Shown here: positions 19,201 through 43,800 of the stretch, piece after piece
Numbering within the stretch: the first letter of the stretch is position 1
Layout of the letters: every line of letters begins with the position of its first letter
Source: Mustelus asterias
Lineage: Eukaryota
Length of the DNA stretch: 64,000 nt
Assembly (NCBI RefSeq): GCF_964213995.1
Contig: NC_135815.1
Location: 2,294,001 to 2,358,000 of the forward strand
Reading direction: 5' to 3'
Translations under genes and position numbers: made by a program
The notes under the pieces: model-generated
Told to the model about the DNA's origin: nothing
The model's input: the letters and a program-made list of their open reading frames with translations, nothing else
Databases searched by the model: none

Positions 19201-22200
19201 AGACCAGAAGACCATAAGACATAGGAGCGGAAGTAAGGCCATTCGGCCCATCGAGTCCACTCCACCATTCAATCATGGTTGATTTCAACTCCATTTACCC
19301 GCTCTCTCCCCATAGCCCTTAATTCCTCGAGAAATCAAGAATTTATCAATTTCTGTCTTGAAGACGCTCAACGTCTCGGCCTCCACAGCCCTCTGTGGCA
19401 ATGAATTCCACAGACCCACCACTCTCTGGCTGAAGAAATTTCTCCTCATCTCTGTTCTAAAGTGACTCCCTTTTATTCTAAGGCTGTGCCCCCGCGTCCT
19501 AGTCTACCCTGTTAATGGAAACAACTTCCCTACGTCCATCCTATCTAATGACAACGTTCCGATGAGACAGGGGGGTGTTGGTAGGGTACGGGAACCGTGG
19601 TGCACGAAGGTTGTGATGAACCTGGTGAATAAGAAAAGAGAGGCGTACAGAAGGTTCAGAGAGCTAGGAGGTGTTAAGGATTTAGAGGAGTATATGGGAT
19701 GTAGGAAGGAGCTTAAGAAGGAAATTAGGAGAGCGAGAAGGGGTCATGAGAAGACCTTGGTGGGTAAGATTAAGGAGAATCCCAAGGCTTTCTACAAATA
19801 TGTCAAGAGTAAAAGGATGAAATGTGAAGACATAGGACCCTTAAAAGGTGAAGGGGGAAAAGTTTGTGCGGAACCGTTAGAAATGGCGGAGGTGCTTAAT
19901 GAATACTTTACCTCGGTATTCACGGTGGAAAGGGATCTGGGTGGTTGTACTGCTGGTTTGCGGTGGACAGAAAGGATCGAGCATGTGGACATAAAGAAAG
20001 AGGATGTGTTGGAACTATTGAATGGCATCAAGGTTGGTAAGTCGCCGGGACCGGATGGGATGTACCCCAGGTTACTGTGGGAGGCGAGGGAGGAGATTGC
20101 GGAGCCTTTGGCGATGATCTTTGCATCGTCAATGGAGACGGGAGAGGTTCCGGAGGATTGGAGGATTGCAGATGTGGTCCCTATATTCAAGAAAGGGAAC
20201 AGGGACAGCCCGGGAAATTACCGACCGGTGAGTCTAACCTCAGTGGTTGGTAAGTTGATGGAGAGGATCCTGAGAGACAGGATTTATGATCATCTAGAGA
20301 AGTTTAGTATGATCAAAAGTAGTCAGCACGGCTTTGTCAAGGGCAGGTCGTGCCTTACGAGCCTGGTTGAGTTCTTTGAAAATGTGACCAAACACATTGA
20401 CGAAGGAAGAGCGGTGGATGTGGTCTATATGGACTTCAGCAAGGCGTTCGATAAGGTCCCCCATGCAAGACTTCTTGAGAAAGTGAGAGGGCATGGGATC
20501 CAAGGGGCTGTTGCCTTGTGGATCCGGAACTGGCTTGCCTGCAGAAGGCAGAGAGTGGCTGTGGAGGGGTCTTTCTCTGCGTGGAGGTCAGTGACCAGTG
20601 GAGTGCCCCAGGGATCTGTTCTGGGACCCTTGCTGTTTGTCATTTTCATAAATGACCTGGATGAGGAAGTGGAGGGATGGGTTGGTAAGTTTGCTGACGA
20701 CACCAAGGTAGGTGGTGTTGTGGATAGTTTGGAGGGATGTCAGAAGTTGCAGCGAGACATAGATAGAATGCAAGACTGGGCGGAGAAGTGGCAGATGGAC
20801 TTCAACCCGGATAAGTGTGTAGTGATCCATTTTGGCAGATCCAATGGGATGAAGCAGCAGTATAATATGAAGGGTACCATTCTTAGCAGTGTAGAGGATC
20901 AGAAGGACCTTGGGGTCCGGGTCCATAGGACTCTTAAATCGGCCTCGCAGGTGGAGGATGCGGTCAAGAAGGCGTACGGCGTACTAGCCTTCATTAATCG
21001 AGGGATTGAGTTTAGGAGTCGGGAGATTATGCTGCAGCTTTATAGGACCCTGGTTAGACCCCACTTGGAGTACTGCGCGCAGTTCTGGTCACCTCATTAC
21101 AGGAAAGATGTTGAAGCCATTGAAAGGGTGCAGAGGAGATTTACAAGGATGTTGCCTGGATTGGGGGGCATGCCTTATGAGGATAGGTTGAGGGAGCTTG
21201 GTCTCTTCTCCCTGGAGAGACGAAGGATGAGAGGTGACCTGATAGAGGTTTACAAGATGTTGAGAGGTCTGGATAGGGTAGACTCTCAGAGGCTATTTCC
21301 AAGGGCTGAAATGGTTGCTACGAGAGGACACAGGTTTAAGGTGCTGGGGGGTAGGTACAGAGGAGATGTCAGGGGTAAGTTTTTCACTCAGAGGGTGGTG
21401 GGTGAGTGGAATCGGCTGACGTCGGTGGTGGTGGAGGCAAACTCGTTGGGGTCTTTTAAGAGACTTCTGGATGAGTACATGGGATTTAATGGGATTGAGG
21501 GCTATAGATAGGCCTAGAGGTGGGGATGTGATCGGCGCAACTTGTGGGCCGAAGGGCCTGTTTGTGCTGTGGCTTTCTATGTTCTATGTTCTATGTTAAG
21601 CCGTTCATTATCTTGTAAGTTTCTATCAGATCTCCCCTCAACCTCCTAAACTCCAATGAATATAATCCCACGATCCTCAGACGTTCATCGTATGTCAGGC
21701 CTACCATTCCTGGGATCATCCGTGTGAATCTCCGCTGGACCCGCTCCAGTGCCAGTATGTCCTTCCTGAGATGTGGGGCCCAAAATTGCTCACAGTACTC
21801 CAAATGGGGCCTAACCAGTGCTTTATAAAGCCTCAGAAGTACATCCCTGCTTTTGTATTCCAAGCCTCTTGAGATAAATGACAACATTACATTTGCTTTC
21901 TTAATTACGGACTCAACCTGCAAGTTTACCTTTAGAGAATCCTGGACTAGGACTCCCAAGTCCCTTTGCACTTTAGCATTATGAATTTTGTCACTGTTTA
22001 GAAAATAGTCCATGCCTCTATTCTTTTTTCCAAAGTGTACGACCTTGCACTTGCCCAGTTGAATTTCATCAGCCACTTCTTGGACCACTCTCCTAAACTG
22101 TCTAAATCTTTCTGCAGCCTCCCCACCTCCTCAATACTACCTGCCCCTCCACCTATCTTTGTATCATCGGCAAACCTGGCCACAATGCCCCCAGTCCCGT

Positions 22201-22257
22201 CATCTAGATCGTTAATATATAAAGAGAACAGCTGTGGCCCCAACACTGAACCCTGCG
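19201..22257 (-). mobile_element. 5'-truncated CR1 (-) with a nested CR1 (+)
   Basis: Flanked by a GGATATA direct repeat (19194-19200, 22258-22264). The empty site is present in the paralog at about 61762-61768. Confidence 0.85.
19548..21594 (+). mobile_element. Young 5'-truncated CR1; uninterrupted 649-aa ORF2 RT portion (19562-21511)
   Basis: Open frame with [32 protein letters not shown]; (ttctatg)n tail. Confidence 0.93.
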
Positions 22258-22500
22258 GGATATAGAGCAGTAACAAACTAACACAGCAAGATCAACCTTG
22301 GAACCTGCTCCCTCCCTTTAAAACTCTTCCTGTGCCCTTCCTTTAACACAGAAACCCGACTGCCTGGACTGTCCCTTTAAATACTCACGGGAATTTGAAA
22401 CCTTCAGCTCAGAATTTAACTCGCTGATTTCTTTCACTCATTGATTTCTTTCATTCACTGATTTATTTCACTCACTGATTTGTTTTTCCTCTTTTTAAAG

Positions 22501-22845
22501 GTGCGAATGTTCCAGTCCTTACCCAGTCTCCGAGTGTGGAACGTGTCACAGAGGGTCAGACTGCACGGTTACAGTGCACCATGGGGAACGCTGCAGTGAC
22601 AGACACTGATGTTCACTGGTACCGGGAGCTACCTGGGAAAGATAGGGAGAGAGTTTTAACACAGGATATATGGAATAACATACACCGGAGCCGAGGTTTC
22701 ACTGAGCGTTTCCAGCCTTCCAGAGACACCTCCTACAACAGCTTCATTCTGACAATCACCATGGTGCAGCCCAGTGACACTGCCGTCTATTACTGCTCAG
22801 TGTGGGGAGGGGTCCGGGGTAAAGGAAGCCGGCTGAATGTAACCA
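22501..22845 (+). CDS. Exon V1: V-set Ig domain with fused J-like G strand
   Basis: Acceptor ttttcctctttttaaag|GT, donor ACC A|gtgagt. Translation ANVPVLTQSPSVERVTEGQTARLQC..VHWYRE..DTAVYYCSVWGGVRGKGSRLNVT has the B-strand Cys, C-strand Trp, DxAxYYC and GxG-x-x-L-x-V. Confidence 0.93.
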
Positions 22846-25800
22846 GTGAGTAAAGTTTTATTCCAATAATCCACAGCAATAACCTCTTCCAGATGAGTGA
22901 GTTGGAGATGAGTTTGTGATGATGTGTGGGGCTTGGGGTTGCCATGGGAACAGGGAGAGGCTGAGATTGGGAAGTGTAATAGGAGCTGTTCCCCATTCAG
23001 ACACACATCACTCTCCACTGATCCTGCTATCCCAGCTCATATCCTCATCCCAGATATTTTCACTCATTTCCTCACACAAATGTGTTGTGTTTGCTGTGAA
23101 TCAGTGATGAGCCAAACCAGTCTCACAACCTGTTAGACAAAAACATCAGGAGAACATCATGATAGTGGAGTCAGACACTTTAGGAACATTTAAGCGATTA
23201 TTGGACAGGCACATGGAGCACACCAGGATGATAGGGAGTGGGATAGCTGGATCTTGGTTTCAGATAAAGCTTGGCACAACATCGTGGGCCGAAGGGCCTA
23301 TTCTGTTCTACTCCTGCTCCGAGAACAGAGACTCTCTCACGTTAACACAGAAACTCTACTGCCTGGACTGTCCCTTTAAATACTCACGGGAATTTATAGA
23401 ACATAGAACATAGAACAGTACAGCACAGAACAGGCCCTTCAGCCCACGATGTTGTGCCGAGCTTTATCTGAAACCAAGATCAAGCTATCCCACTCCCTAT
23501 CATCCTGGTGTGCTCCATGTGCCGATCCAATAACCGCTTAAATGTTCCTAAAGTGTCTGACTCCACTATCACTGCAGGCAGTCCATTCCACACCCCAACC
23601 ACTCTCTGCGTAAAGAACCTACCTCTGATATCCTTCCTGTGTTTTGTGAGAGGGAGGTCATGCCTCACTAACCTGGTGGTGTTTTTTGAAGAAGTGACCA
23701 AAATGGTTGACGAAGGAAGGGCCGTGGATGTTGTCTATATGGACTTTAGTAAAGCGTTTGACAAAGTCCCTCATGGTCGGCTAGTGAAAAATGTTGGATC
23801 CCATGGGATAAAGGGGGAGGTGGCTAGATGGGTGGAGAACTGGCTTGGTCATAGAAGACAGAGGGTGGTAGTGGAAGGGTCTTTTTCCGGCTGGAGGCCT
23901 GTGACTAGTGGTGTACCGCAGGGCTCTGTATTGGGACCTCTGCTGTTTGTGATTTATATAAATGATCTGGAAGAAGGAGTAACTGGGGTGATCAGTAAGT
24001 TTGCGGACGACACAAAACTGGCAGGACTTGCAGATAGTGAGGAACATTGTCAGAGGCTACAGAAGGATATAGAGAGGCTGGAAATTTGGGCAAGGAAATG
24101 GCAGATGGAGTTCAATCCTGATGAATGCGAAGTGATGCATTTTGGTGGGAATAATGTAAGGAGGAGCTACACGATAAATGGAAGAACCATAAAGGGTGTA
24201 GAGACGCAGAGGGACCTGGGTGTGCAAGTCCACAGATCTTTGAAGGTGACGTCACAGGTGGAGAAGGTGGTGAAGAAGGCATATGGCATGCTTGCCTTCA
24301 TAGGACGGGGCATAGAGTATAAAAGTTGGGGTCTGATGTTGCAGATGTATAGAACGTTGGTTCGGCCGCATTTGGAATACTGCGTCCAGTACTGGTCGCC
24401 ACACTACCAGAAGGACGTGGAGGCTTTGGAGAGAGTACAGAGGAGGTTTACCAGGATGTTGCCTGGTATGGAGGGGCTTGGTTATGAGGAGAGATTGGGG
24501 AAACTGGGGTTGTTCTCCTTGGAAAGACGGAGGATGAGGGGAGACTTAATAGAGGTGTATAAAATTATGAAAGGCATAGATAGGGTGAACGGTGGGAAGC
24601 TTTTCCCCGGGTCGGTGGTGACGTTCACGAGGGGTCATAGGTTCAAGGTGAAGGGGGGGAGGTTTAACACAGATATCAGAAGGACATATTTCACACAGAG
24701 GGTCGTGGGGGCCTGGAATGTGTTGCCGGGCAAGGTGGTGGAGGCGGACACACTGGGAACGTTTAAGACTTATCGAGACAGCTATATGAACGGAGTGGGA
24801 ATGGAGGGTTACAAAAGAGTGGTCTAGTTTGGACCAGGGAGCGGCGCGGGCTAATTGTTCCTTGTTTCTCGTGGAAGTGGAAATGACTAGGGTTGGGAAG
24901 CATTTTCCGATCAGGGCCATTGTGATCTCCTGGACTCGTTTCAATCGCCTCAGGGGGTCGGAGAGGAATTTCCCAGATTTTTTTTTCCCCATATTGGCCC
25001 TGGGGTTTTTCACTCTGGGTTTTCGCCTCTCCCTGGGGATCACATGGTCTGGAATGGGGGGGTGGGGGTGAGTTAATAGGTTGTAATGAACAAAGCATCG
25101 TAGCTGTGGGGGACAGCTTGGTGGATAGGATATTGGTATGTAGATAGGCTGGAAAATTGGGCGGGGATCCTGGATTCAGGATTCAATCCTGGACCGGGGA
25201 GCGGCGCGGGCTTGGAGGGCCGAAGGGCCTGTTCCTGTGCTGTATTGTTCTTTGTTCTTTGTTCTTTGTTGTATCTCCCACCATGAACCCTATAGTTATG
25301 CCCCCTTGTAATAGCTCCATCCACCCGAGGAAATAGTCTTTGACCGTTCACTCTATCTATCCCCTTCATCATTTTATAAACCTCTATTAAGTCTCCCCTC
25401 AGCCTCCTCCGCTCCAGAGAGAACAGACCTAGCTCCCTCAACCTTTCCTCATAAGACCTACCCTCCAAACCAGGCAGCATCCTGGTAAATCTCCTCTGCA
25501 CTCTTTCCAGCGCTTCCACATCCTTCTTATAGTGAGGTGACCAAAACTGCACACAATATTCCAAATGTGGTCTCACCAAGGTCCTGTACTTTCAGCTCAG
25601 AATTTAAAGAACAAAGAAAATTACAGCACAGGAACAGGCCCTTCGGCCCTCCAAGCCTGCACCGACCATGCTGCCCGACTGAACTAAAACCCCCTACCCT
25701 TCCAGGGACCATATCCCTCTATTCTCATCCTATTCATGTATTTGTCCAGTCGCCAGTTAAAACTCACTACCGTATCCGCTTCCACCGTAACCCCTGGCAG

Positions 25801-28800
25801 CGAGTTCCTGGCACCCACCACCCTCTGTGTAAAAAACCTTGCCTTGTACATTTCCTTTAAACCTTGCCCCTCACACCTTAAACCTATGCCTCCGAGTAAT
25901 TGACTCTTCCACCCTGGGAAAAAGCTTCTGAATATCCACTCTGTCCATGCCCCTCATAATCGTGTAGACTTGTATCAGGTCGCCCCTCAACCTCCATCGT
26001 TCCAGTGAGAACAAACCAAGTTTCTCCAACCTCTCTTCATAGCTAATGCCCTCCATACCAGGCAACATCCTGGTAAATCTTTTCTGTAGCCTCTCCAAAG
26101 CCTCCACATTCTTCTGGTAATGTGGCGACCAGAATTGAACACAGTATGGCCAAACGAAGGTTCTATAAAGCTGCAACATGCCTTGCCAATTTTTAAACTC
26201 AATGCCCCAGCTGATGAAGACAAGCATGCCGTATGCCTTCTTGACTACCTTCTCCACCTGCGTTGCCACTCTCAGTGACCTGTGTACCTATATACCCAGA
26301 TCCCTTTGCCTCTCAATACTCGAAAGGGTTCTGCCATTTACTGTATATTTCCTATCTGTATTAGACCTTCCAAAATGCATTACCTCACATTTGTCCGGAT
26401 TAAACTCCATCTGCCATCTCTCCGCCCAAGCTCCAACCTATCTATATCCTGCTGTATCCTCTGATGGTCCTCATCGCTATCTGCAAATCCACCAACCTTT
26501 GTGGCGTCCGCAAACTTACCAATCAAACCAGTTACATTTTCCTCCAAATCATTTATATATATTACAAACAGCAAAGGTCCCAGCACTGATCCCTGAGGAA
26601 CACCACTTGTCACAGCCCTCCATTCAGAAACGCACCCTTCCACTTCTACCCTCTGTCTTCTGGCCATAGGAGACAGAGGGTAGTGGTAGAAGGGTCTTTT
26701 TCCGGCTGGAGGTCTGTGACCAGTGGTGTTCCGCAGGGCTCTGTACTGGGACCTCTGCTATTTGTGATATATATAAATGATTTGGAAGAAGGTGTAACTG
26801 GTGTAATCAGCAAGTTTGCGGATGACACGAAGATAGCTGGACTTGCGGATAGCGAAGAGCATTGTCGGGCAATACAGCAGGATATAGATAGGCTGGAAAA
26901 TTGGGCGGAGAGGTGGCAGATGGAGTTTAATCTGGATAAATGCGAAGTGATGCATTTTGGAAGAAATAATGTAGGGAGGAGTTATACAATAAATGGCAGA
27001 GTCATCAGGAGTATAGAAACACAGAGGGACCTAGGTGTGCAAGTCCACAAATCCTTGAAGGTGGCAACACAGGTGGAGAAGGTGGTGAAGAAGGCATATG
27101 GTATGCTTGCATTTATAGGACGGGGTATAGAGTATAAAAGCTGGAGTCTGACGATGCAGCTGTATAGAACGCTGGTTAGGCCACATTTGGAGTACTGTGT
27201 CCAGTTCTGGTCGCCGCACTACCAGAAGGACGTGGAGGCGTTAGAGAGAGTGCAGAGAAGGTTTACCAGGATGTTGCCTGGTATGGAGGGTCTTAGCAAT
27301 GAGGAGAGATTGGGTAAACTGGGGTTGTTCTCCCTGGAAAGACGGAGAATGAGGGGAGATCTAATAGAGGTGTACAAGATTATGAAGGGGATAGATAGGG
27401 TGAACGGTGGGAAGCTTTTTCCCAGATCAGAAGTGACGTTCACGAGGGGTCATGGGCTCAAGGTGAGAGGGGCGAAGTATAACTCAGATATTAGAGGGAT
27501 GTTTTTTACACAGAGGGTGGTGGGGGCCTGGAATGCGCTGCCAAGTAGGGTGGTGGAGGCAGGCACGCTGACATCGTTTAAGACTTACCTGGATAGTCAC
27601 ATGAGCAGCCTGGGAATGGAGGGATACAAACGATTGGTCTAGTTGGACCAAGGAGCGGCACAGGCTTGGAGGGCCGAAGGGCCTGTTTCCTGTGCTGTAC
27701 TGTTCTTTGTCCTTTGTTCTTTGACAGAGCCAGTTTTGTATCCACCTTGCCAGCTCACCTCTGATCCCATGCGACTTCACCTTCTGCACCAGTCTGCCAT
27801 GAGGGACCTTGTCAAAGGCCTTACTGAAGTCCATGTGGACAACATCCACTGCCCTACCCTCATCAATTAGCTTCATCACTTCCTCAAAGAATTTGATCAA
27901 ATTAGTGAGACACGACCTCACCTTCACAAAACATGTTGCCTCTCGCGAATACGTTCACTTATTTCCAAGTGGGACTAAATCCTGTCTCGAAGAATCCTCT
28001 CCAATAATTTCCCTACCACTGATGTAAGGCTCACCGGCCTGTAATCACCTGGATTATTCTTGTTACCCTTCTTAAACAAAGGAACAACATTGGTTATTCT
28101 CCAATCCTCTGGGACCTCCCCGTACAGTAAGAAGTCTCACAACACCAGGTTAAAGTCCAACAGGTTTATTTGGTAACACAAGCTTTCGGAGTCTCGCTCC
28201 TTCTTCAGGTGAGACTCACCTGAAGGAGGAGCGATAGTCCGAAAGCTTGTGCTACCAAATAAACCTTTTGGACTTTAACCTGGTGTTGTGAGACTTCTTA
28301 CTGTGCTTATCCCAGTCCAACACCGGCATCTCCACATCATGACCTCCCCTGTAGCCAGTGAGGGTACAAAGATTTCTCTCAATTTCCTCCCTTGCCTCTC
28401 TCAGTACTTTGGGGTATATCCTATCAGGCACTGGGGACTTGTCTACCTTAATGTTTCTCAAGAATCCCAATATCTCCTCCTTTTTGATCTCAACATGACT
28501 CAAACTATCTACACACCCTTTCCCAGATTCCTCGTCCACCCAGTCCTTCTCTTTGGTGAATACTGACTCAAAGTACTCATTTAATACCTCACCCATTTCC
28601 TCTGGCTCCATGCATAGATTCCCTCCCTTGTCCTTGAGTAGGCCAACCCTCTCCCTGGCTACCCTCTTGCTCTTTATATATGTATGAAAAGCCTTGGGAT
28701 TTTCCTTAATCCTGCTGGCCAATGATTTTTCGTGACCCCTTTTAGCCCTCCTTACTCCTTGCTTAAGTTTCTTTCTACTTTCCTTGTATTCCACACTTGC

Positions 28801-31800
28801 TTCGTGTGTTCCCAGCCTCCTGGCCTTGACAAATGCTTCCTTTTTCTCTTTGACTCGGTTCACAATATCTCTCGTTATACAAGGTTCCCAAAACTTGCCA
28901 TACTTATCCTTCATCCTTACAGGAATGTGTCGGTCCTGAGTCCCTATCAACTTCTACTTGAAATTCTCCCACATGCCAGATGTTGATTTGCCCTCAAACA
29001 TCTGCCCCCAATCTACATTCTTCAGTTCCTGCCTAATATTGTTGGAATTAGCCTTCCCCCAGTTTAGCACCTTCACTTGAGGACTATACTTTTTTTCATC
29101 CAACGTTAAAGCTTACTGAATTGTGGCCACTGTTTCTGAACTGCTCCCCTACTGAAACATCGACCACCTGGCTGGGCTCATTCCCCAACACCAGGTCCAG
29201 TATGGCCCCTTCCCTAGTTGGACTATCTACATATTGTTTCAAGAAGCCCTCTTGGATGCTCTGCCTCATCCACGCCCCTAGCACTAAGTGAGTCCCAGTC
29301 AATATAGGGGAAGTTAAAATCTCCCACCACAATTACCCTGTTTCTTTTACACCTTGCCAAATCTGCCTACATATCTGTTCCTCAATCTCCCGCTGGCTTT
29401 TGGTGGTCTATAGTAAATCCCCAACATTGTGACTACACCTTTCCTATTCCTGAGCTCTACCCACATTACCTCGCTGTATGAGCCCTCCGAGGTGTCCCCC
29501 AAGAGTACAGCTGTGATATTCTCCTTAACCAGTAGTGCAACTCCCCCACCCCTTTTACATCCACCTCTATGCTGCCTGAAACATCTGTACCTTGAATGTT
29601 AAGCTGCCAATCCTGTCCTCCCCTTAACCAAGTCTCTGTAATGGTAACAACATCATAGTTCCAAGTACTAATCCAAGCTCTAAATTCACCTGCCTTACCT
29701 GTTACACTTCTCACATTGAAACAAATGCACTTCAGTCCACCAGACCCTCTGATTAGCAATCCCACCCTGCCTGCTGTTTCTCTGAGTCTTACTGGTTCTA
29801 CTCTCTGGTTCTCCTTCAGTTAATTCACCTTTGTTTTAGATCCCACCCCCCTGCCAAACTAGTTTAAATCCTCCTGTGTGACACTAGCAAACCTCCCGGC
29901 TAGAATATTTATGCCTTTCCAGTTTAGATGCAACCTGTCCTTCTTGTACAGGTCCCACCTTCCCCTGAAGAGATCCCAATGGTCCAGATATCTGAAACCC
30001 TCCCTCCTACACCAGCTGTTTAGCCACGTGTTGAGCTGCACTATCTTCCTATTTCTAGCCTCACTGGCACGTGGAACAGGGAGTAATCCTGAGATTACAA
30101 CCATTGATTTCTTTAATTCACTGATTTCTTTATCCTATTGATTTCTTTAAAACTGATCCAGTCCCATCTTGTCCCCCGGACCCCCCCGCCACCCCCCCAC
30201 CAGCCCATTCGGGATGACTGCCACATTCCTACACTCTGTACCTGTGTTCTGCCATTTACACATTCCAGTCTCTGAATGGACACCATTATCACCATTCTCA
30301 GCCTTTATCATCACCATTTACATTCCTTTTCCCTATCTGTCTATGCTATTCTTATTTACAGCCCCCGCCGCCCCCAACAGTCTAAATCCTGTCTGATTTT
30401 ATTTGTCTTCAGCTCTGACGAAGGGTCATCCAGACTCGAAACATTGGCTCTATTCTCTCTCCACCAGATGCTGTCAGACCTGCTAATATTTTCTATCGTT
30501 TTGTGTTTTTGTTCCAGTCCTTACCCAGTCTCCGAGTGTGGAACGTGTCACAGAGGGTCAGACTGCACGGTTACAGTGCACCATGGGGAACGCTGCAGTG
30601 ACAGACACTGATGTTCACTGGCACCGGGAGCGACCTGGGAAAGATCGGGAGAGAGTTTTAACACATTATACAAGGAATAACATACACCGGAGTCCAGGTT
30701 TCACTGAGCGTTTCCAGCCTTCCACAGACACCTCCAATAACAGCTTCATTCTGACAATCACCGTGGTGCAGCCCAGTGACACTGCCGTCTATTACTGCTC
30801 AGTGTGGAGAGGAACCTGGGTCTGGGGGAAAGGAAGCCGGCTGAATGTAACCAGTGAGTAAAGTTTCATTCCAATAATTCACAGCAATAACCTCTTCCAG
30901 ATGAGTGAGTTGGAGGTGAGTTTGTGATGATGAGGAGCTGGGAGTGATGTCAAGTGATCTTACTGATGGATTCACTGTGGGGAAGAAGCTGAGCTCAGGT
31001 TCAGCAACTCCCCAAAGTTCCACATCTCGGGCTTCATCCTGACGGGGTGTCTGGGGGGATTAGTGCCGTGAGGCTGTTCACTAAGCTGCAGAAGAAGCTT
31101 TCTCTTCGCCGAACCCTCATGTCGGGCAGGGATCCGGAGGGAGAGGAAAGAGCCTTGGGATGGATGGAGGAGGTGGAGAGACACAGCTGAGTGACGGTGG
31201 AGATGGAGATGTTGAGCAGGTTTCTGAGGGTGAAATGATGAGGAGGAGGAAGCCACGGATGGTGCCTTGGGGACACAGCAGAGATGATCATTCAGACACT
31301 GGGGGAGACACCAGTGGTGCTGATATAATATTAATGATGTGAGCAGCAGGAGGGGCAGTGTGGGAGAGCGGTGCCAGGAGCTGGAATGTGCATCAGAAAC
31401 TTTCAAACAGGAATGTGTGCTCAGTGGTGTAGAAAGGAGAGCAGAGGTGAAAGATTCTGAGGAGGGATAGACAGTGGACATCACAATCACACAGATATCA
31501 CTCATCATCTTTATCTGTGAAGTTGTGGTTGGAGTGAATTCTGATTGCAGGGTCAGGAACAGGGAGTGGGCAGGAGGGGGGTCTCGGGATGTGGTGGTGC
31601 AGTGATATTGTCACTGGACTAGTAATCCAGAAACCCAGGGTAATGCTCTGGGGACTTGTGTTCGAATCCCACCACGGCAGATGGTGAAGATTGAATTCAG
31701 TAAAAATATGGAAGAAAACTTTTAATAGTGACCATGAAACCATCATTAATAGTTGCAAAAACCCATCTGATTCATTAATATCCCTCAGGGAAGGAAGTCT

Positions 31801-34800
31801 GCCGTCCTTACCTGGCCTGGTTCTACATGAGACTTCAGACCCCCAGATTACAGGAGGAAAGGGTCAGGAGGATGGATGGTCTTTATTGTGGAGACAAAGA
31901 AATCCATCTGTTCCTTAGAATTATGATGATACTGTGCCTTTAAGAAATGTATTTGTGTCATGTTTCTTGTGAGGGGACTATGTTACACTTCAGCTCTGAT
32001 TACGGTGCCGATTGTCTGCAACTGCCGAGAATGCAGATGAAAAGTTCCTCCGAATTATTGGGGTGTTTGTTTTACCTGAGTGAATGCATTTTTGCTATTT
32101 TTAGGGTTGCCCACTGGGATTTTCAGTTATATAGTTAAACTGTGTTATTAAATAAGGTTTGTTTTGATAAAGGCTTCCCAGTGGGTCAATAGAATCACAC
32201 CTGGAGTGAAACACCTTTAAGAGGTGTAGTTTGATCAAGTTTCTCTGCAGGATGTTTCTCGCATGCCCTGGAATTTTGTTGGCACCGTGTTGTCTGTGAC
32301 TGGTGTCCGTTATTGTTGCTGAAGCAGTATAATTGAAGCAATGTTTATTTTCATCTGGACTAAAGCAGTGTCCTCTGGTTTTAATGTGTGCCCTGGGATT
32401 GCTGAGTGGAGCTTGATTGGATAGGATTGACAGCTTCAGTCATGTGACTACAGACAGCTATTTTCCACAGAGCAATCGAGTTTTAGTTTTGATTTGAGCT
32501 GCTGCCAGAAGCTGATGGGAGCAGGCAGTGTTTCTGTCTCTCTCTCTCTCCTGAGACTTTCTCAACGTTCCAAGACTGGACAGCCTCCGAGATTTAATCC
32601 AACATTCAAAAGACCAATTCACATCGCTGTTCAAAATCTGCAAATGCAGCATCACATGAGCATACTTGCTTCAGTGCTAACTTCATCTGAAGCATGGTGT
32701 GTGTCTATGGGGTTGCTTTACATTGCATCAACAGAGGGAGCTAACTGTTAAGGATTAAACTGTTTCATCTTTAATTCTTGTTAGTGGTAAAAGTTATGCT
32801 AATTTTTATTATTATATGTTAACTGTTTTTAAATAACCTTTCTTTGATAAAAGCTTCCAAGTGGGTCACTTGAATCATACCTGGAGTAAAACACCTTAGA
32901 CTCACCCTAAAGCCAAAATCAAATGTGAAACTTAGGGTCTGGGCTAACTTCACAGAACACCTTGGAGTCTCTGGCCTGGGTTTTACCACACTTTATCCTC
33001 ACACTAATGCCAAAATTAAAAACAGTTCGGGTCCAACTAACTTCATTTGTACCTTGGAGTTTTTGCGATGATCCCTAACAGAATTGGTGTGTGAAATGAG
33101 CGTGGGGGGTGTGGGGAGGTGTGGGGAGGTGGGGGGAGGTGGCAGGGAGGGGGGTGGGTAGGGGGGTGCAGATGGTTAGTGGTGGAGAGGAGCAGTTTGA
33201 ATATGTTCCTCGTCTCCAGGTTTAACTGAGAGCCGGAAGAGGATTTGTTTGTGAAAAGGGAACATTGCAGCATTCTGTGTTTGAGGCACATTTAACCAGA
33301 AACATCTGGGCAGGTTACTCACCAGCTGTTCCAGCTTCTGCCCTGTGAGACCATGGGGGTGACAGTGAGCGTGGGGATGGAGAATTATTTGTGATAATTG
33401 GGGGAGAATGCTGAAGATAACTGAAACTTTAACCAGGGGATTGGCAGATATTAATATCATTCTTCACATAATGGAGTCTCAAATTGGGGAAGTCTTGCTG
33501 CAGTTTCACAGTGAATTAGTGGGACTGTAACTGGAGAATGGGTACAGCTTTAGCCCTCCTCCCTAAGGGGGGATATACTTGTAACAGAGGAAGTTCTGAG
33601 AAGGTACATTACACTGATTCCTGGGATGATGAGTTGTTTGATGAGGAAAGGTTGAGAAGATTGGTCTGAGACTCAGTGGAGTTTTGAAGAATGAGGTTAT
33701 CTTATTGGGATGTGTGTGATTCCTGAGGGGACTTGATGGAGTAGATACTGAGAGGGTGTTTCTCCTCTTGGAGGAATCTCAAACTAGGCAACGCTGTTTA
33801 AATTTAAGGAATTAAGATTGAAATGAGGAGTAATTTCTTCCCTCAGAGTCGTGAACCTTTGGAGTGCTGATTCCAGACAGCAGTGGGATTTGGGTCATTG
33901 AATATATTCAGGGCGGGGCTGCAGGAAGGGATTTCTTCTCCAGGAATCGAGAGTTTGGGGAAGCTGGCAAGAAAGCTGGGCTTAGTTAACAATCAGACCT
34001 CCCATCATTGTCTTGAATCATGGACAGGCTCGAGGGGCCAAATGGCCTCATACTGTTCCCATTTCTTATGTTCTTTTATGACCATGGGTGCAAGGCCAGT
34101 GTCAGGGAGGTTGGATGGTGAGGTGACAGAGTTCAAGTTGCCAGACCTTTGAAGGATATATATGAGTTAATGAGATGAATAATAGAATGAGGATGTAATG
34201 AGAAAGATCCCTGTTTGTGATCAATGTGAAGCAGCAGATATTGGAAAGGTCACACAGTTGCTTCCGTTATAGTCGGTGTGTGTGTAACATTAATCTACCC
34301 TGTCAGTGAGGAAACTGATAGGATTGGGTACAATGTTGTTCACACACCCACTCACCATCCTCGGTTTTACTTTCTGTTCTATAAGAAGCAATACTGGCTG
34401 GGTGTGAAATCTGAATTCCACCTATTCCTGTTTGTTTTCCACCCAAACATTCACATTCCAACTGTCCCCATTCACCCTTTATTCTCCCCACAGATGCTTC
34501 CAAAAACCTCTGCGTATTTCAAGAATTTCCAGAGTCATTTTGTTCAGATTTCCAGAATCGACATTATTTTATATTTTATATCCACAGGCCAAGCTGGGAT
34601 TGGGGAAATGTTTCTGCCACCGTTCAGTGGTTTTGGGAATGGGAATATGGCAGTTACGATGTCCTGGGAGGAAAGGAATATGATTTTTCCCAATATTACT
34701 ATGGGATACGGTGAAGCAGGTTTCGGGGGCTGTGTGTGTGTTTGTGTGTGTGCAACTAATTTAATTGAACTGAAGACAGTTAGACTGAACAGTTTAACTC

Positions 34801-37800
34801 ATCAAAAGGGTTCGGTATAAACGCAAGTTTTTGGAATGGAGATGATCAAAGCTGAGAGAGGATAAGTACGGGGGCGATTCTCCCATTGCAAACCGCAACT
34901 TTTCTGACGGGTCGGGTGGGGAGATGCGCGTGTCGGCCATTTAGCGGGTTCCCCGCAAACATTTACGACCCGCGCGCATCTCCCAACTGGACAATAATGG
35001 TGCCGCTGGAACCACGCAGAAAACCGGCGGGAAGAGAGATAAGTGATTGAAATCTGATTTTAATGTATATATTAAACCAAAGGTGATCCAAGGTGAACTA
35101 TCAAGATGGGTACAGAACTGGCTTGGCCATAGAAGACAGAGGGTAGCAGTGGAGGGGTCTTTTTCTGATTGGGGTTCGTGACTAGTGGTGTTCCGTAGGG
35201 CTCTGTACTGGGACCTCTGCTGTTTGTGATATATATAAATGATTTGGAAGAAGATGTAGCTGGTGTGATCAGTAAGTTTGCGGACGACACAAAGATTGCT
35301 GGAGTTGCGGATAGTGATGAACATTGTCAGAGAATGCAGCAGGATATAGATAGGCTGGAAAGTTGGGCGGAGAAATGGCAGATAGAATTTAATCCAGATA
35401 AATGCAAAGTGATGCATTTTGATAGATCTAATAGATGGGGGAGCTATACAATAAATGGCAGAACCATCAGGAGCATAGACACACAGAGGGATGTGGGTGT
35501 GCAAGTCCACAGATCCTTAAAGGTGGCAGCCCCGATAAAAAGGTGGTGAAGAAGGCATATGGCATGCTTGCCTTTATTGGACAGGGAATAGAGTATAAAA
35601 GTTGGCATATGATGTTGCGGTTAGATAGAACGTTGGTTAAGCCACATTTGGAATACTGCGTCCAGTTCTGGCCGCCACACTACCAGAAGGACGTGGAGGT
35701 TTTGGAGAGAGTGCAGAAAAGGTTTACCAGGATGTTGCCTGGTATGGAGGGTATTAGCTATGAGGTGAGATTGAGTAAACTAGGGTTGTTCTCCCTGGAA
35801 AGACGGAGGTTGAGGGGCAACCTAATAGAAGTTGATAAAATTATGAAGGGCATAGGTAGGGTGAACAGCTGGAAGCTTTTTCCCAGGTCAGAAATGACAA
35901 ACACAAGGGGTCACAAGTTCAAGGTGAGGGGGGCAAGGTTCAATACAGATATGCGGGGGACGTATTTTACACAGAGGGTGGTGGGGGCCTGGAATGCACT
36001 ACCAAGCAAGGTGGTTGAGGCAGACGCGCTCGGATCATTTAAGACTTATCTAGATAGCCACATGAGCAGACTGGGAATAGAGGGATACAAACGGATGGTC
36101 TAGTTAGGAACACATGATCGGTGCAGGCTTGGAGGGCCGAAGGTCCTGTTCCTGAGCTGTATTGTTCTTTGTTTCTTTGTTTGTTTCTTTGTATTTTAAA
36201 TCTAGTTTGCATCTCCCATCCCGCCAGGAGGATGTCATTCGGCGGGGTTTAGAGTAGCTCCCCTTGTTCGGGGAACCAGTGGGAGACCCCGCCGGAGTGA
36301 AGGGGTGGCAATTGGGTCCCCCCCAGGGGTCTGGGCAAAAGGGGGGTGGTGCCCCCTGGGCATGGGCACGTTGGCACTACCCAGCAGGCATCATGCAATG
36401 TCAAGGGGGTGGGGTCCATTGTGGGAGGGGCCAAGGCAGTGACTGGTGGGGTTGGGGGGTTCCACTGCCACTCTGCATTGAGATTGGTCTGGGCTGGAGG
36501 GAGGCCAGCGATTGGGGCGGGCTGAGAGGGGTGGACTGCTCAGGGGGCCCTGCCTCCCTGGGGGGGGCTGCCTCCTGGGATGGGGGGTCTGACCCCAGGG
36601 GGGGGTTTCAGCAGGGGGGTGGGGTCTGCCTCCTGTCAGGAGGTCAGGGGGGAGTCTGCTGGGGTGAGTGGAGTGGGGGGATCACCACTGCTGTGTACGG
36701 GGGGCTGGGCATTGGGGTGCTCCAGGACGGGGTCGGGGGGGGGGGGTGGTAAGGGCTGGCCCAGGAATGGTCCTCGGGGCCGTGGAGGGGGCTGGAGGGG
36801 CAGCACTGTGGGGGTCCCGGGCTGGCCAGTGATCGATCTGGCCAGCAAATGGCGCATGCACAGAGTTCCAGAACTGCCAGACCCCGCCGCGAATAGGCCC
36901 CGCCTCCGGATTTTTAATAATATTAACAATTGGGACATCTGCATTGCACAGAGTGCAGAGATTCGGGCCTGAAAAAAGAATCATGATCGAAACCAGTTTT
37001 CTCGACAATTCAGCACTTTTGGGAGAATTGCCCTCTTCATTTCTGGGAATGGGAGTTTTTATTCCTGAGTTCCGGACACATAGTTTCTTGCAATAAAATA
37101 TAAATTGCAAATGGTTGTAGTAGCTTGATCAATTTTCCCTTTGTGATTTGGTCAGCCTGGTTATTACCACCTGCCATGTCTTAATGTGGATGGAAATTTG
37201 CATGAGGAGATACGAAGTTTGCTTGTGCTCACATGGGGAATTTCAGAGATAAATAACAGGGTATTTACAACTGGCAAAGATCAGAAATGAATAAAACAAT
37301 GTTATTAAATTTATTCTGATCAAAGGAATAGTGGCCATAAAGACAACACGCACAAGGCCGCTCTCTGCACACAAAAGGACTATGTTCCAGCTGTGCGCCT
37401 TTTTCCAAAATAAATGGGAAATTTGGGAGTCTCTAATTCAGACAACTCTCTCCATGGCAACAAGTCAGCCAATCTGAGTTGACTTTCTAACCAATTGTCC
37501 CATTTTTCTCCCGTTGAGTAAATTGTGATTGTTTGAAATTTAATATTCTTGTGTTTTTCCTGATGAGTGTAAAATGAAAAGCTTCAGCAACACGTCTCTC
37601 TATTCGATGAGATTCAGGTCCTAAACCACGAAGGGACGGATCATTTATAATTCCTCACACAAATCGATATGACTTCATTTGAATCACCCAGCCCATTGGT
37701 TCAGTCTCAGCATCTCTTTAACAACAAACTTTCCCTTTAAACGTTTTGTAACCTCCAGACTGGTTTTTAAATTGTTGATATTTTCCTCTTTTTAAAGGTG

Positions 37801-40800
37801 CGAATGTTCCAGTCCTTACCCAGTCTCCGAGTGTGGAACGTGTCACAGAGGGTCAGACTGCACGGTTACAGTGCACCATGGGGAACGCTGCAGTGACAGA
37901 CACTGATGTTCACTGGCACCGGGAGCTACCTGGGAAAGATTGGGAGAGAATTTTAACACTGGATACAGGCAATAACATACACCGGAGCCCAGGTTTCACT
38001 GAGCGTTTCCAGCCTTCCAGAGACACCTCCAATAACAGCTTCATTCTGACAATCACCGTGGTGCAGCCCAGTGACACTGCTGTCTATTACTGCTCAGTGT
38101 GGGGAGATATCAGTGGGAACGGGACACAGCTGAATGTAACCAGTAAGTCCAGTTTACATAACAATCTCCTGAAGTAATCACCACTTGTGACTGTGTGGGA
38201 GATGAGGATGTGAGAAATATCACAAACCCCTGTGGTAATGGGAACACATTAGAAAAATAGACTGGGTGATCTCATGCGCTCTTATTAAAGAATAAAAATT
38301 GTGCATCGCTCCTGATTTCTCAGTCTTCAATTCTTTGACATTTTCTCTGTTTCTCTGTTTCTGTTTGTTTCTAATCTTTCTCCCTCTCCTTTGTTTACTC
38401 AGCTTTCTGTCAGCGTGCTGTCTCCAGCTGTTTCTGTTTTATATTCATTCTTGGTGGGCATTACTGGTTAGGGTCCACCACTAGTTGTCCTTGAGAAGGT
38501 GGTGATGAAACAGCCTCTTGAACTGTTGCAGTCCATGTGGTGTAGGTGCATCCACAGTGCTGTCAGGATTGGAAATTCCAGGATTCTGACCCAGCGACAG
38601 TGAAGGAACAGCGATATATTTCCAAGTCAGGATGGCGAGTGACTCGGCGAGAAGCCTCCAGGTGGTGGTGTTCCCCATGTGCCTGCTGCCCTTGTCCTTT
38701 TAGAGTCATAGTCATCGAGTCGTAGAGTGCAGAAATGGTAGAGGTTATGGGTTTGGAAGGTTCTGTATTTGGAGCCTTGGTGAGTTCCTGCAGTGCATCT
38801 TGTAGATGGTACACACGGCTGTCACTGTGTGTCCATGGTGGTGGGAATGAATGTTTAATGTGATGGGTGAGGTCCCAATCAAGCACATTGGCTTTGTTCT
38901 GGATGGTGTCGAGCTTCTTGAGTGTTGTTGGAGCTGTAGTCATCCAGACCAGTGGAGAGTATTCCATCACACTGCTGACTTGTGCCTTGCAGGTGGTGGA
39001 CAGGCTTTGGGGAGTCAGGAGGTGAGTTACCCTCTGCAGGATTCCCAGCCTCTGACCTGCTCTTGTAGCCATAGCTTTTATATGGCTGGCCCAGTTCAGT
39101 TTTTGAACAATTCTAACCCCAGGATGTTGACAGTGGGGATTCAGTGATGGAAATGCCATTGAATGTCAAGGGGCGATGGTTAGATCCTGTCTTGTTGGAA
39201 ATGTTCATTGCCTGACACTAATGTTACCCACCACATATCAGCCCAAGTCTGAATGTTGTCCAGGTCCTGCTGTGTGCAGGAACAGCCTGCTTCAGCAATG
39301 GAGGAGTAATGAATGGTCCAATCATTAATGAACATCCTCACTTCTGACCTTATGATGGAAGGAAGGTTATTGATGAAGCAGCTGAAGATGGTTGGGCCTC
39401 GGAAGCTATCCTGAGGCACTCCTGCAGTGATGTCCTGGAGCTGAGATGATTGACCTCCACCCATCTTCCTTTGCTCCGGGTATGACTGCAGGTGGAGAGG
39501 AAAAGGTGAGGAAAGCAGTGAGAAGAGTGGGATTCAGGAAATTAGGGGTTTCTGGGAATATGATGTCGTACATGAGAAATGAGCAGGGAACCAGTAGAGG
39601 CTGGGATCAGGGAGGAAGAATGGGTGAGGTTTCGAGCTTGGCACACTGCTGGGTGCCAGGAATAGGGAGAGTCATAGGGATGAGGAACGTACGTTAGCCG
39701 AGGCAACAATGTCCACATCTTGGGAAAGACAATGCTTCAGGTTGGGATCCGTAGAAGGAGCACAGCCAAATTGCCTCTTTAGAGTTGGGAACCATGTGTC
39801 AGGCCATTTCATCTCAAAAAACAACTGTCTGGCTATCTGTTCAATATGTTACTGTTGATAGAGTTGCCAGATGCCCTTGTTATGAATCTTGGTTGAGTTC
39901 CAGATTGACTATGGACCGAGTCAATGAAATAATGTTAACATAGTTTGAAGCAAAGTGCTCCTAGTTATTTGACTGACATTTCTAAGGTTGCGAGAAGTTT
40001 CTTTCTTTGTGGTTTTTCAATGCCTGTTTGTTTATTTGAACGCAGTTAAGAGATGTTAAAAGGCTTAAAACTTTACCCACTGATGCTACGAATGGCAATG
40101 GTTATTTGCCTCTTTGCTCACTGTGTCAATTTCAGAAACATTTCAATGAATTTCCAGCTGTGCTCATGGCACATGGCTTCTGTACATCGTGGATACTTGG
40201 AGAGTGGGTGTGGAGTATGCATGGGAAAATGGAAAGGGCATGAGGTTGCAGTAAGCAGGGAAGGATATAATGAGTCATGGAGGAGGCCTGAGGGTTATCA
40301 GGAAGGGCGGGATCTTAGAGTGAAGTTCCACAATTGGCAGAATGTAACAGGACAGGTCGATATGGTGGGATAAGTTTGAAATTCCCTGTGTCTCTTTTTA
40401 CCAATTCCCAACAATCCCGGAAGGGGAAAATCCAGGCCAGATTGATAGGATGGGGTAAAGAAGAGGATTAGCAGCAGTAAATCAGTCCGTGTGCGGTCAC
40501 GCTGCAATTATTATACAGGAAATTTCAAACTTTATACCTTTACTTTCACCTTTCATTCATCTTTTTAAACAATAATTTGAGTTCTTCCAATAATCAGCTG
40601 TGAAGATTGTGAAGTTTATCCGTTTGATAGTTTGTTTTCTGTGGTTGGGAATGTGCACTGAATGGATAATATCAGCAAATTCTAGAACATTCAGCCCTTT
40701 TGTCACATCATTCCCTCCCTCGTTGCAAACAACTATTTCCATGTTGGAAGAATGAGAAAATTGGGGTGGCACGATGGCCCAATGATTAGCATTGCTGCCT

Positions 40801-43800
40801 CACAGAGCCACAGACATGGGTTCGATTCCCAGCTTGGGTCACTGTCTGTGTGGAGTCTGCACGTTCTCCCCGTTTCTGCATGGGTTTCCTCCAGGTGCTC
40901 CGGTTTCCTCCTACAGTCTGAAAGATGTGCTGGTTAGGGTGCATTGACCCGAACAGGCACCTAAGTGTGGCAACGAGGGGATTTTCACAGTAACTTCACT
41001 GCAGTGTTAATGTGAGCCTACTTGTGACTAATAAATACATTTTACTTTAGAATACTCTGCAGATCATTATTGTAACCAGAAGAAGATTTCTAAAATGTTG
41101 CATTTCAAGTTCTATGATTTTTCTTTCTCAATATTAACAGCTCCATTGTCTGACCCAGTCCTCATGCAGTATCCAACAGTCAGCAAGGTGCCAGAGGGTC
41201 AGGCTGTCGACTTACAATGTGCCATGTACAATGCCAGTGTGATTGACACTGATGTCCACTGGCGTTACCAGCGAGCTGGCTACCACAGTGAGTGGCTGAT
41301 CAGCCAGTTTGTGAATGGCACCATTACCAAGTCCCGGGATTCCCACCACCGTTTTCAGCCTTCCCGGAATGTCAGCAGCAACAGCTACATTCTGACCATT
41401 GTGAATGTGACCCTCAAAGATACAGCTGTGTACAGATGCAGTGTGTGGAGCTACATTCATGGAGCAGGGACCCAGCTCAATGTCACTGGTAAGTCAATGC
41501 TGAGTGACTGGCGTGTGCATGGAATGGAAGGGAGCATACAGAATGGCAGAGTGCTCATCCAGGCCTTCGTTCCAAAGATTGAATTAGGTTGGACTGGTTA
41601 GGAAGTCAGGCCTGGAGGGACCTAAGTGAGAAACTGAATCACAGAATTGCACAGAAGACCATTCGTCCCATCATGTTTTCACCCTCGCTCTGAATGCTCA
41701 ACTCGCCGAGTGCCATTCCCCTGCAACCCTGAACATTTCTCCACTTTCGATAACAGTCTAATTCCCTTTTGAATGCTTCAATTGAACCGGTCTCCACCAC
41801 ACTCTCAGACAGTGCATTCCAGATCCTAACCACTCGCTGTGTGAATCTGTCTCCACCACACTCTCAGACAGTGCATTCCAGATCCTAACCACTCGCTGTG
41901 TGAATCTGTCTCCACCACACTCTCAGACAGTGCATTCCAGATCCTAACCACTCGCTGTGTGAATCTGTCTCCACCACACTCTCAGACAGTGCATTCCAGA
42001 TCCTAACCACTTGGTGTGTGAATCTGTCTCCACCACACTCTCAGACAGTGCATTCCAGATCCTAACCACTCGCTGTGTGAACCGGTCTCCACCACACTCT
42101 CAGACAGTGCATTCCAGATCCTAACCACTCGCTGTGTGAATCTGTCTCCACCACACTCTCAGACAGTGCATTCCAGATCCTAACCACTCGCTGTGTGAAT
42201 CTGTCTCCACCACACTCTCAGACAGTGCATTCCAGATCCTAACGTCTCGCTGTGTGAAAAGGTTTTTTCTTCATTTCTCTTTGGTAAATTACTTTATTTT
42301 GATGCCCTGTGGTTCTCGATCCTTTCACAATGGGAACAGTTTCTCCTGATCTACTCTGTCAGACCTCCAATGGTTTTGAATACGTGTCAAATTTCCTCTC
42401 AGCCTTCTCTCCTCCATGGAAATCAGTCCTAATTTCTACAATACTTCTCCAAAGGCCAGGATACTGTGTGCTTTATTAACTGCTCTCTCCACCTGTCCTG
42501 TCAGCTTCAATGAATTATGCATACACACACTCAACTGTCTCTGTTTCTGCACCCCCTTTAGATTTGTAACCCCTATTTACATTGTCTCTTTATGTTCTTC
42601 CCACCGACATGTATCTCCTCACATTTCTCCGTGTTGAACTTTATCTGCCACCTGTCTGCCCACTCCAACATTTTGTCTCTGTCCTTTTGAATTTCCAAAC
42701 GATATTCCTCACAGTTTCCAATACTCTCAAGTTTCAGATCACCCACAAATGTTGAAATTGTGTTCTGTACACTAAGGTCTCGGTCATTCATGTATCTCAG
42801 GAAAAGCAAGATCCCAGCACTCAGCCCTGGGGAACTCCACTACAAATGATGGGCTGATCTTGGGCTTGAACTCCATTCGCTGCCTGCTCACCATGTCTCT
42901 GAATTCCCCGACAGAGCAACATCTCTGTATTCCAGCCTTAAATGTATTTAACAATGGAGCATCCACATCCCTCTGGGTGCAGCACTGGAGAGATGGTTGC
43001 TGAGTTTGTGAGGTTTGGTGAGTGTGGACAGGCAGAGAAAGCGGATCATTCCTCATCCTCCCAACTTCACACAAACAAGCGTTTGGAAGCTCTGGGATTG
43101 TTTTGAATGTTCTGTGATTCTTTGGTATTGGTGCAAACTGCTACTGGATCACGGGTCTCTGCTCTGCTGTATGACTGATCTCTGGGATTGTTTCAGATCC
43201 ATAAAAAAAGGCAACAATGTTAGAGGAAGAAGCCATTATGTTGCACTGGCCTTTCATTCCAGGCTGTTAACTTGCCACGTATCAAAGGGACATGTTTACC
43301 CGAATGTGCTCAGCAGAAACTGATGGAAACAGGTTCTGTCTGATTTTATTTCCATTCAGGTCGATGTACATTACTCAAACTGAAGCTGTAGTGTGTGTAA
43401 CATTCTGATATTTTACAGAAGAATCATCCTCCAATAATCCCTGGATTTCAGATCCCGTTGTGTTAAGCCTGGCTATCATTCTGCCCTTGGTTGTCTTGTT
43501 CTGCATTGCTCTGCTCACAGGTTATCTTGTAAAAAAGAGGTTCTGTTCAGCAAAGAACTCCACACCAAGGTAAATACGATTCATCTTGTGTCTGCTGCTG
43601 TAACTGGACAGGGGCACTATTTTATAACTTGCTGCTTTTAGTGAGGAGTAACTTTTCCCTTGTCACGTACAGTTCATGCGGAGTGACCTGCTACTGATGA
43701 GAGCCACACATGTCCAGATGCTCAACTGGTGCCAGTCATCTCCAACTGTCACGGCATCACACTTACTCCAGCACTGACCAACAGGCACCTAACCTGCTGC

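Follow-up and report, generated by a model that had tools for sequence, protein, structure and literature searches.

Single-exon VJ genes are usually taken as relics from before RAG. SIRP molecules have a VJ-type distal domain, an ITIM/ITSM tail and domain conversion, NITRs have ITIM tails, and CD300/pIgR-like receptors, MDIR and hagfish APAR combine a modular or multi-V build with inhibitory tails; CD300, pIgR and MDIR contain a second disulfide in the C-C' region. To our knowledge, searches for NITRs had found no shark NK or myeloid inhibitory receptors. NITR genes are described as clustered, diversified and non-recombining single-exon VJ genes (bioRxiv 2021.06.11.448072), and UrIg and UrIg2 as one VJ domain with C1 domains, with conversion between the repeated domains of UrIg2 (PMC12227049). 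Sigma-2 light chains are reported always to have a CDR1 of 8 and a CDR2 of 7 residues, and to have V and J joined in coelacanth, gar and turtle (PMC5985310).

The window analyzed here, a stretch of 64,000 nucleotides of Mustelus asterias (G000:C15:2294001-2358000; positions without a contig refer to this window), contains four V exons of a predicted receptor gene. Like NITRs, the genes of its family are clustered, diversified, non-recombining and of the single-exon VJ type. Unlike NITRs, they lack an I domain (the window gene has four V-set domains), NITR-like sequences fell outside their group in a phylogenetic tree, and a charged transmembrane core was found in only 1 of 88 homologs. The automatic names of the homologs were inconsistent: several were called SHPS-1-like, in line with SIRP, and some pIgR-like. 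In contrast to SIRP, the family has no C1-set stalk, and a lungfish protein that we labelled SIRP-like was distant from it in the third tree described below. In contrast to CD300, pIgR and MDIR, V1-V4 have the two canonical cysteines alone and are antigen-receptor-type V domains with a GxG G strand. The non-rearranging single-exon VJ is shared with UrIg, UrIg2, PRARP and NCR3; UrIg and UrIg2 are set apart by architecture, as the present family has V domains alone with a putative inhibitory tail. UrIg2, the CD28/PD-1 family and NITR were each considered as the identity of the gene and rejected because the architectures differ.

No description of this multi-V chondrichthyan family was found in the literature, where subscription journals and supplements could mention it, and the family is apparently undescribed. 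Immune receptor families are expected to show selection on loops, which alone would be ordinary; of more interest are the family itself and where it came from. The family offers concrete candidate genes for NK or myeloid inhibitory receptors of sharks.

Exon structure and family of the predicted receptor

Ten in-frame exons were identified within the window, along with a leader at G000:C15:2274604, outside the window and 42 kb upstream of V1, and every junction was GT-AG. The exons are predicted to encode one type I receptor of 591 aa with the order leader, four V domains, transmembrane segment and ITIM-bearing tail. The V1 exon (22501..22845, + strand, as for all exons below) is a single-exon VJ of phase 1-1 flanked by AG/GT sites, has a 3' end of class D (one of the domain classes given below) and is predicted to be membrane-distal. 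In the V2 exon (30518..30853), the native acceptor and the first 17 nt were replaced by other sequence. The acceptor is predicted to be a CAG inside the exon, at which the paralog protein model P0014 splices as well. The V3 exon (37798..38142) is of class B, with the conserved WGDISGNG end and a glycan site in the G strand, and the V4 exon (41141..41488) is of class C and membrane-proximal. N-glycosylation sequons increased from one in V1 to two, three and five in V2, V3 and V4. V1-V3 were assigned to V-set domains by Pfam, and V3 shared 97% identity with the closest named proteins, from Mustelus asterias. The AlphaFold model of V1 (pLDDT 96.5) had a V fold of the usual antibody type (TM about 0.9), PDB searches by sequence and fold gave generic antibody V matches, and the top match in the ESM Atlas was an unnamed cluster of 100 members.

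The V exons are followed by an exon for the stalk and an uncharged transmembrane segment (43419..43569), by four tail exons (44421..44464, 45382..45425, 50257..50298 and 51510..51552) and by the last coding exon, which ends with TGA (52333..52358). Tail exon 1 carries PVYETV, at which many homologs have the ITSM-like TVYATV, tail exon 3 contains the tyrosine of PTYMAL, and tail exon 4 encodes the consensus ITIM SIYSDL. Two of these three tyrosine motifs are non-consensus; by pattern, the uncharged transmembrane segment and SIYSDL agree with an ITIM receptor. The motifs that the first-pass annotation quoted for V1-V3 were all present at their places, but the three are predicted to be tandem exons of one receptor and not separate V genes, and the fourth V exon, the transmembrane exon and the tail exons, all downstream of the interval that it covered, had been missed. 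Separate V genes or an array of V segments were rejected, as the four exons are served by one leader and one transmembrane exon.

A near-identical paralog at G000:C15:2.44 Mb, whose introns match at approximately 98-99.8%, lacks a 1.44-kb segment bearing V1 (22091..23532). This absence, with 3-bp microhomology, is likely a deletion in the paralog. V exons are gained and lost between paralogs, as shown by computation. V1 and V2 might alternatively be cassette exons from which splicing selects the distal domain, or V2 might be weakly used. Such a reading draws on the phase 1-1 of all the V exons, which can be skipped in frame, on the loss of the native V2 acceptor with a V1-V2 join nearly devoid of linker, on the paralog lacking V1 and on the isoform names carried by many homolog models. 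We consider it rather unlikely, as homolog models exist with as many as eight V domains in series; it is compatible with the single-receptor explanation and would alter the architecture alone.

A search directed at longer proteins gave 267 candidates, among which 107 family proteins were recognized. All the named ones were from sharks and rays, and chimaera members were found among representative sequences. A transmembrane segment was present in 88 of the 107 proteins, and 70 of these 88 had an ITIM- or ITSM-like motif in the tail (ITIM pattern in 59 and ITSM pattern in 32, by pattern match alone); YxN occurred in 29 of the 88 tails, and some models had a short tail or none. The C1 motif YxCxVxH was detected in none of the 107 homologs, yet a precomputed C1-set match was listed for three of them. 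The 298 domains (274 unique) of the 107 proteins sorted into four recurring classes: class A was almost always first, class C in the middle or last, and class D was the variable remainder. A sequon in CDR2 was frequent in class B (67/113) and class C (48/52), rarer in class D (9/62) and absent from class A (0/47), classes A and D being mostly distal.

Differences among the V exons and positive selection

Over a run of 36 codons that starts at the Pro of PVLTQ, includes CDR1 and ends at the C-strand Trp, V1, V2 and V3 did not differ by a single nucleotide. With IMGT-style boundaries (CDR1 of 8, CDR2 of 7 and CDR3 of 6-8 aa; numbering by the rules as generally known), the reading of the loops in the first-pass annotation was confirmed. 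CDR2 starts with QDIW in V1 (22662..22682; 7 aa) and HYTR in V2 (30664..30684), and its position reads LDTG in V3. The CDR3 position reads WGGVR in V1 (22797..22817 including Arg at IMGT 118; CDR3 of 6 aa), WRGTWVW in V2 (30799..30825 including Trp at IMGT 118) and WGDIS in V3. The CDR3 of V2 has 8 aa owing to a 6-bp in-frame insertion, a length that only one of 200 family domains showed. In CDR2, the four consecutive codons replaced between V1 and V2 form a run that was significant by permutation (P=0.012). Apart from the 6-bp indel, these two exons differed by 13 nonsynonymous and four synonymous nucleotide changes, or 13 replaced and three silent codons, close to an earlier hand count of about 12 and 3-4.

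CDR2 and CDR3, together 13 of 111 codons, contained six of the 13 replaced codons in V1/V2 (hypergeometric P=0.0009), five of 15 in V1/V3 (P=0.015) and six of 14 in V2/V3 (P=0.0014). Replacements were thus enriched in these loops, but the loops held just 33-46% of the changes, and the claim that the exons differ mainly there was too strong. As pN and pS of V1/V2 were similar over the whole exon (0.052 and 0.048), the three sequences by themselves are no proof of selection. The WGDISGNG end of V3 is the conserved class-B state from skates to sharks, and no CDR3 change was found among five class-B exons of the same genome. Because the class-B end is conserved across sharks and rays, the CDR3 difference of V3 is an old difference between domain classes. 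The class-D 3' end is common to V1 and V2, as are 80 bp of the 3' intron, yet the 5' half of both is of class B; joined in this way to a different 3' end, the V exons look like conversion mosaics.

Self-written GY-type site models were applied to codons 2-99 of 11 close exons of the same genome, located at C15:1.55-2.55 Mb in genes with differing transmembrane and tail exons. Some of the 11 had no downstream transmembrane exon in the stretches examined or adjoined a frame-broken exon, and some may be pseudogenic. The M0 omega was 1.5, and the models with selection were favored (M1a/M2a LRT 15.2, p=5e-4; M8a/M8 p=1e-4); the selected class was broad, at 37% of sites, and included CDR1 positions. 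For the six exons with class-D ends, the comparisons gave p=0.014 (M1a/M2a) and p=0.004 (M8a/M8), and two CDR3 sites exceeded 0.95. Neutral simulations cut into six shuffled segments were used as a mosaic null. The observed LRT, 15.9 in this comparison, was reached in 0/43 mosaic and 0/21 non-mosaic neutral sets, and 3/43 of the mosaic sets passed 5.99.

The omega values of individual regions, for which a single synonymous rate was assumed and p values were uncorrected for several regions, were 5.2-6.0 in CDR2 (p at most 0.005; 5.96 with p=1e-4), 4.6-10 in C'' and 2.0-2.8 in FR2 (p 0.02-0.27). For CDR3 with position 118, omega was 6.48 in class D (p=0.001) and 0.01 in class B. CDR1 gave 0.6-3.0, in no set significantly above 1, and FR1 gave 0.01, a lack of change which suggests homogenization of the 5' half that would inflate the loop omega. 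A tree-free count gave 11 nonsynonymous loop changes over 30.5 sites versus seven synonymous changes over 81.9 sites (P=0.003); the class-D loops taken alone, with 11 nonsynonymous and no synonymous changes, were not significant (P=0.067). Entropy by class served as description alone and carries some circularity, since the CDR3 motif was what defined class B, and class D is a residual class.

Recombination among the exons bears on another reading, in which diversity is not selected: constraint would be relaxed on young duplicates, and conversion would homogenize the 5' half while leaving older patches in the loops. Of the 78 site pairs in codons 2-99, 26 showed four-gamete incompatibility, the 5' and 3' flanks gave different groupings of the exons, and a PHI-like test was significant on the full exon (P=0.024) and not on codons 2-99 (P=0.69). 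The incompatible pairs and the discordant flanks, together with the near-equal pN and pS of V1/V2 and the old origin of the V3 CDR3 difference, speak for relaxed constraint. We regard this as improbable in view of the mosaic simulations, none of which attained the observed LRT, the class-D loops with replacements and no silent change, and the CDR2 variants, which were mostly single-base steps from one another. Positive selection at CDR2, C'' and class-D CDR3 was modest but robust, and FR2 was probably also under positive selection.

Since C'' and, more weakly, FR2 were raised, the target is a face and not just the two loops. The raised regions appear to be contiguous on the C-C'-C''/FG side, with strand order taken from the structural model and the face from general knowledge, and the pattern suggests a side-face binding site. 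The selected sites indicate where ligand contact might be sought. The proposed germline diversification of a ligand-binding surface thus gained support at the loops, where additional paralogs gave omega of 5-6.5 for CDR2 and, in the V1/V2 class, for CDR3; it needed to be widened to C'' and, less firmly, to FR2, and did not extend to the CDR3 difference of V3. V domains of the nectin and CEACAM type form trans-dimers via the GFCC'C'' face. The same face being variable here, a homophilic or family-internal adhesion code for self-recognition between cells, not driven by defence, was also considered, and conversion between repeat domains of UrIg2 has been tied to an idea of self-recognition (PMC12227049). 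The tails, with ITIMs and no PDZ-type end, together with omega above 1 and the lineage-specific expansion, would favor an immune receptor, and we judge an adhesion code improbable.

The most probable explanation, in our view, is that the gene encodes a non-rearranging, likely inhibitory ITIM receptor of shark leukocyte type, in which the CDR2 and CDR3 differences are largely germline and positively selected on the likely ligand face. The lightly glycosylated distal domains V1 and V2 would bind ligand via the C-C'-C''/FG face as unpaired V domains, and the glycan-rich V3 and V4 would serve as a stalk. The stalk role of the proximal domains is not clean, because omega was above 1 also in CDR2, as well as in C'', of the class-B (proximal) exons. 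Phosphorylated tail tyrosines would recruit SHP-1/SHP-2. The driver would most likely be a ligand-binding or ligand-mimicking microbe, or a polymorphic self ligand. New variants would arise by point mutation, be shuffled between exons by conversion and be multiplied by exon duplication, in a V domain that likely came from the sigma-2 lineage of Ig light chains.

Relation to sigma-2 light chains

The best match outside the family in the same genome was L017, a light-chain V with 49% identity, which carries a 12-spacer RSS (read by eye) and whose relatives are elasmobranch light chains. We take light chains of the L017 type to be sigma-2, a class also named sigma-cart, NS5 or type I, with which their 8/7 CDR lengths fit; a horn shark record is presumably a type I light chain. 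The same 8/7 lengths of CDR1 and CDR2 were found in 200 of 227 non-class-A family domains. Three trees were built from about 105 columns, with outgroups that were chosen for their resemblance to the query and labelled on inspection, and without named NCR3, PRARP, UrIg/UrIg2, CD8 or VpreB rows. In all of them the family grouped with shark sigma-2, VJ-C1 proteins of coelacanth, caecilian and turtle, and the joined VJ exon L020, with support of 89/95, 98/98 and 94/92. TCR-alpha rows were drawn toward the family side in the first tree, in which the outgroup failed. The second tree was made without seven outgroup rows (five TCR-alpha, one long TCR-gamma and one mislabelled) and 14 family rows; for the third, four TCR-alpha rows were restored, NITR- and SIRP-like sequences were added, and 14 other outgroup and 15 family rows were removed. 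The family and shark sigma-2 alone formed a clade in 0% of the bootstrap trees of the second analysis, and the grouping held only when the VJ-C1 proteins and L020 were part of it. These comparisons indicate that the family likely shares an origin with the sigma-2 class.

The family differs from sigma-2 light chains in having tandem V exons, a transmembrane segment and a tyrosine tail, and in lacking C1 and RSS. Pro50 of the light-chain interface was present in all 19 matched sigma-2 V (29 examined) versus at most 5 of 200 family domains, and the Phe118 position is mostly Ser or Tyr in the family. The residues for VH pairing, Q44, P50 and F118, were replaced in V1-V3 by E44, R/W50 and R/W/S118. 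The family CDR3 was nearly fixed at 6 aa (199 of 200 domains).

No 12/23 RSS was matched around any of the four V exons, and each V was in one exon with its J-like GxG G strand and a splice donor. The earlier statement that diversification proceeds without RAG holds for today's joined exons; the exon itself may descend from a RAG-joined light-chain VJ. We tentatively propose that an ITIM receptor acquired, before the chimaera-shark split, a germline sigma-2 VJ exon already joined by RAG. The exon would then have shed its interface for the heavy chain, and its multiplication would have produced a modular family of innate receptors in which the freed interface face came under positive selection. 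An adaptive domain would thereby have turned innate, and the family would be a candidate for the NK-type inhibitory receptors so far missing in cartilaginous fish. It is also possible, if doubtful, that the exon is instead a relic, left from a sister gene of sigma-2 whose V and J were never split. The second tree, in which the family was sister to and not nested in shark sigma-2, the nearly constant CDR3 length and the joined V-J of sigma-2 in coelacanth, gar and turtle (PMC5985310) are in keeping with a relic. On the other hand, the family and sigma-2 sat among rearranging Ig/TCR V in the SIRP-rooted third tree, whose backbone was unresolved, and a never-split state would therefore need several splitting events; the RSS of L017 in the same genome also argues against it. 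If the family is tied to one light-chain class, it would represent either a flow from adaptive to innate immunity or a second lineage as candidate for the unsplit ancestor. L020 (1447-1805, - strand; G000:C373), which falls with sigma-2 V in the trees, is a divergent joined VJ contained in one exon, and is possibly a germline-joined sigma-2 or PRARP-like gene.

Paralogs, tails and repeats

Homology to the paralog (G000:C15:2463466-2464552) is lost in the intron that follows tail exon 2, at 29 bp from the start of this intron (window 45455-52358). The window gene ends with SIYSDL-type tail exons and the paralog with a TEYSAV exon, and an N stretch (45805-45999) falls within the window interval given. 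The catshark protein P0068 has the tail combination of the window gene; tails are therefore swapped or alternatively used. A two-V member (L063-L065, G000:C15:1659663-1683846, - strand; P0065) has a tail with YENI and YMNV and no ITIMs, a possible activating or costimulatory form. Another member (L052, G000:C15:1550300-1556830, - strand) encodes two V domains and, after them, a very long NVTSEE-type repeat exon with an open frame of 1139 aa; such a mucin-like stalk is also found in the skate protein P0087. An inverted partial copy (L032-L047, G000:C15:2366452-2389135, - strand) contains a leader and one V2-type exon, and no transmembrane exon was found downstream of it in the stretches examined. 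P0146 and P0153, from catsharks and bamboo shark, are divergent two-V relatives with short tails and have no close match in the Mustelus asterias genome.

V1 is flanked by a 55-bp direct repeat (22344-22398 and 23342-23397), and a 17-bp satellite found ahead of both V1 and V2 (30105-30150) forms a 91-copy array at the window end (62123-63668). The repeats around V1 and V2 are consistent with an origin of these exons by tandem duplication. The intron between V4 and the transmembrane exon contains a 59-bp tandem array of eight copies (41783-42258), which is longer in the paralog, and a minisatellite of roughly 15 kb lies inside the cluster at C15:2.527-2.542 Mb (L069-L070).
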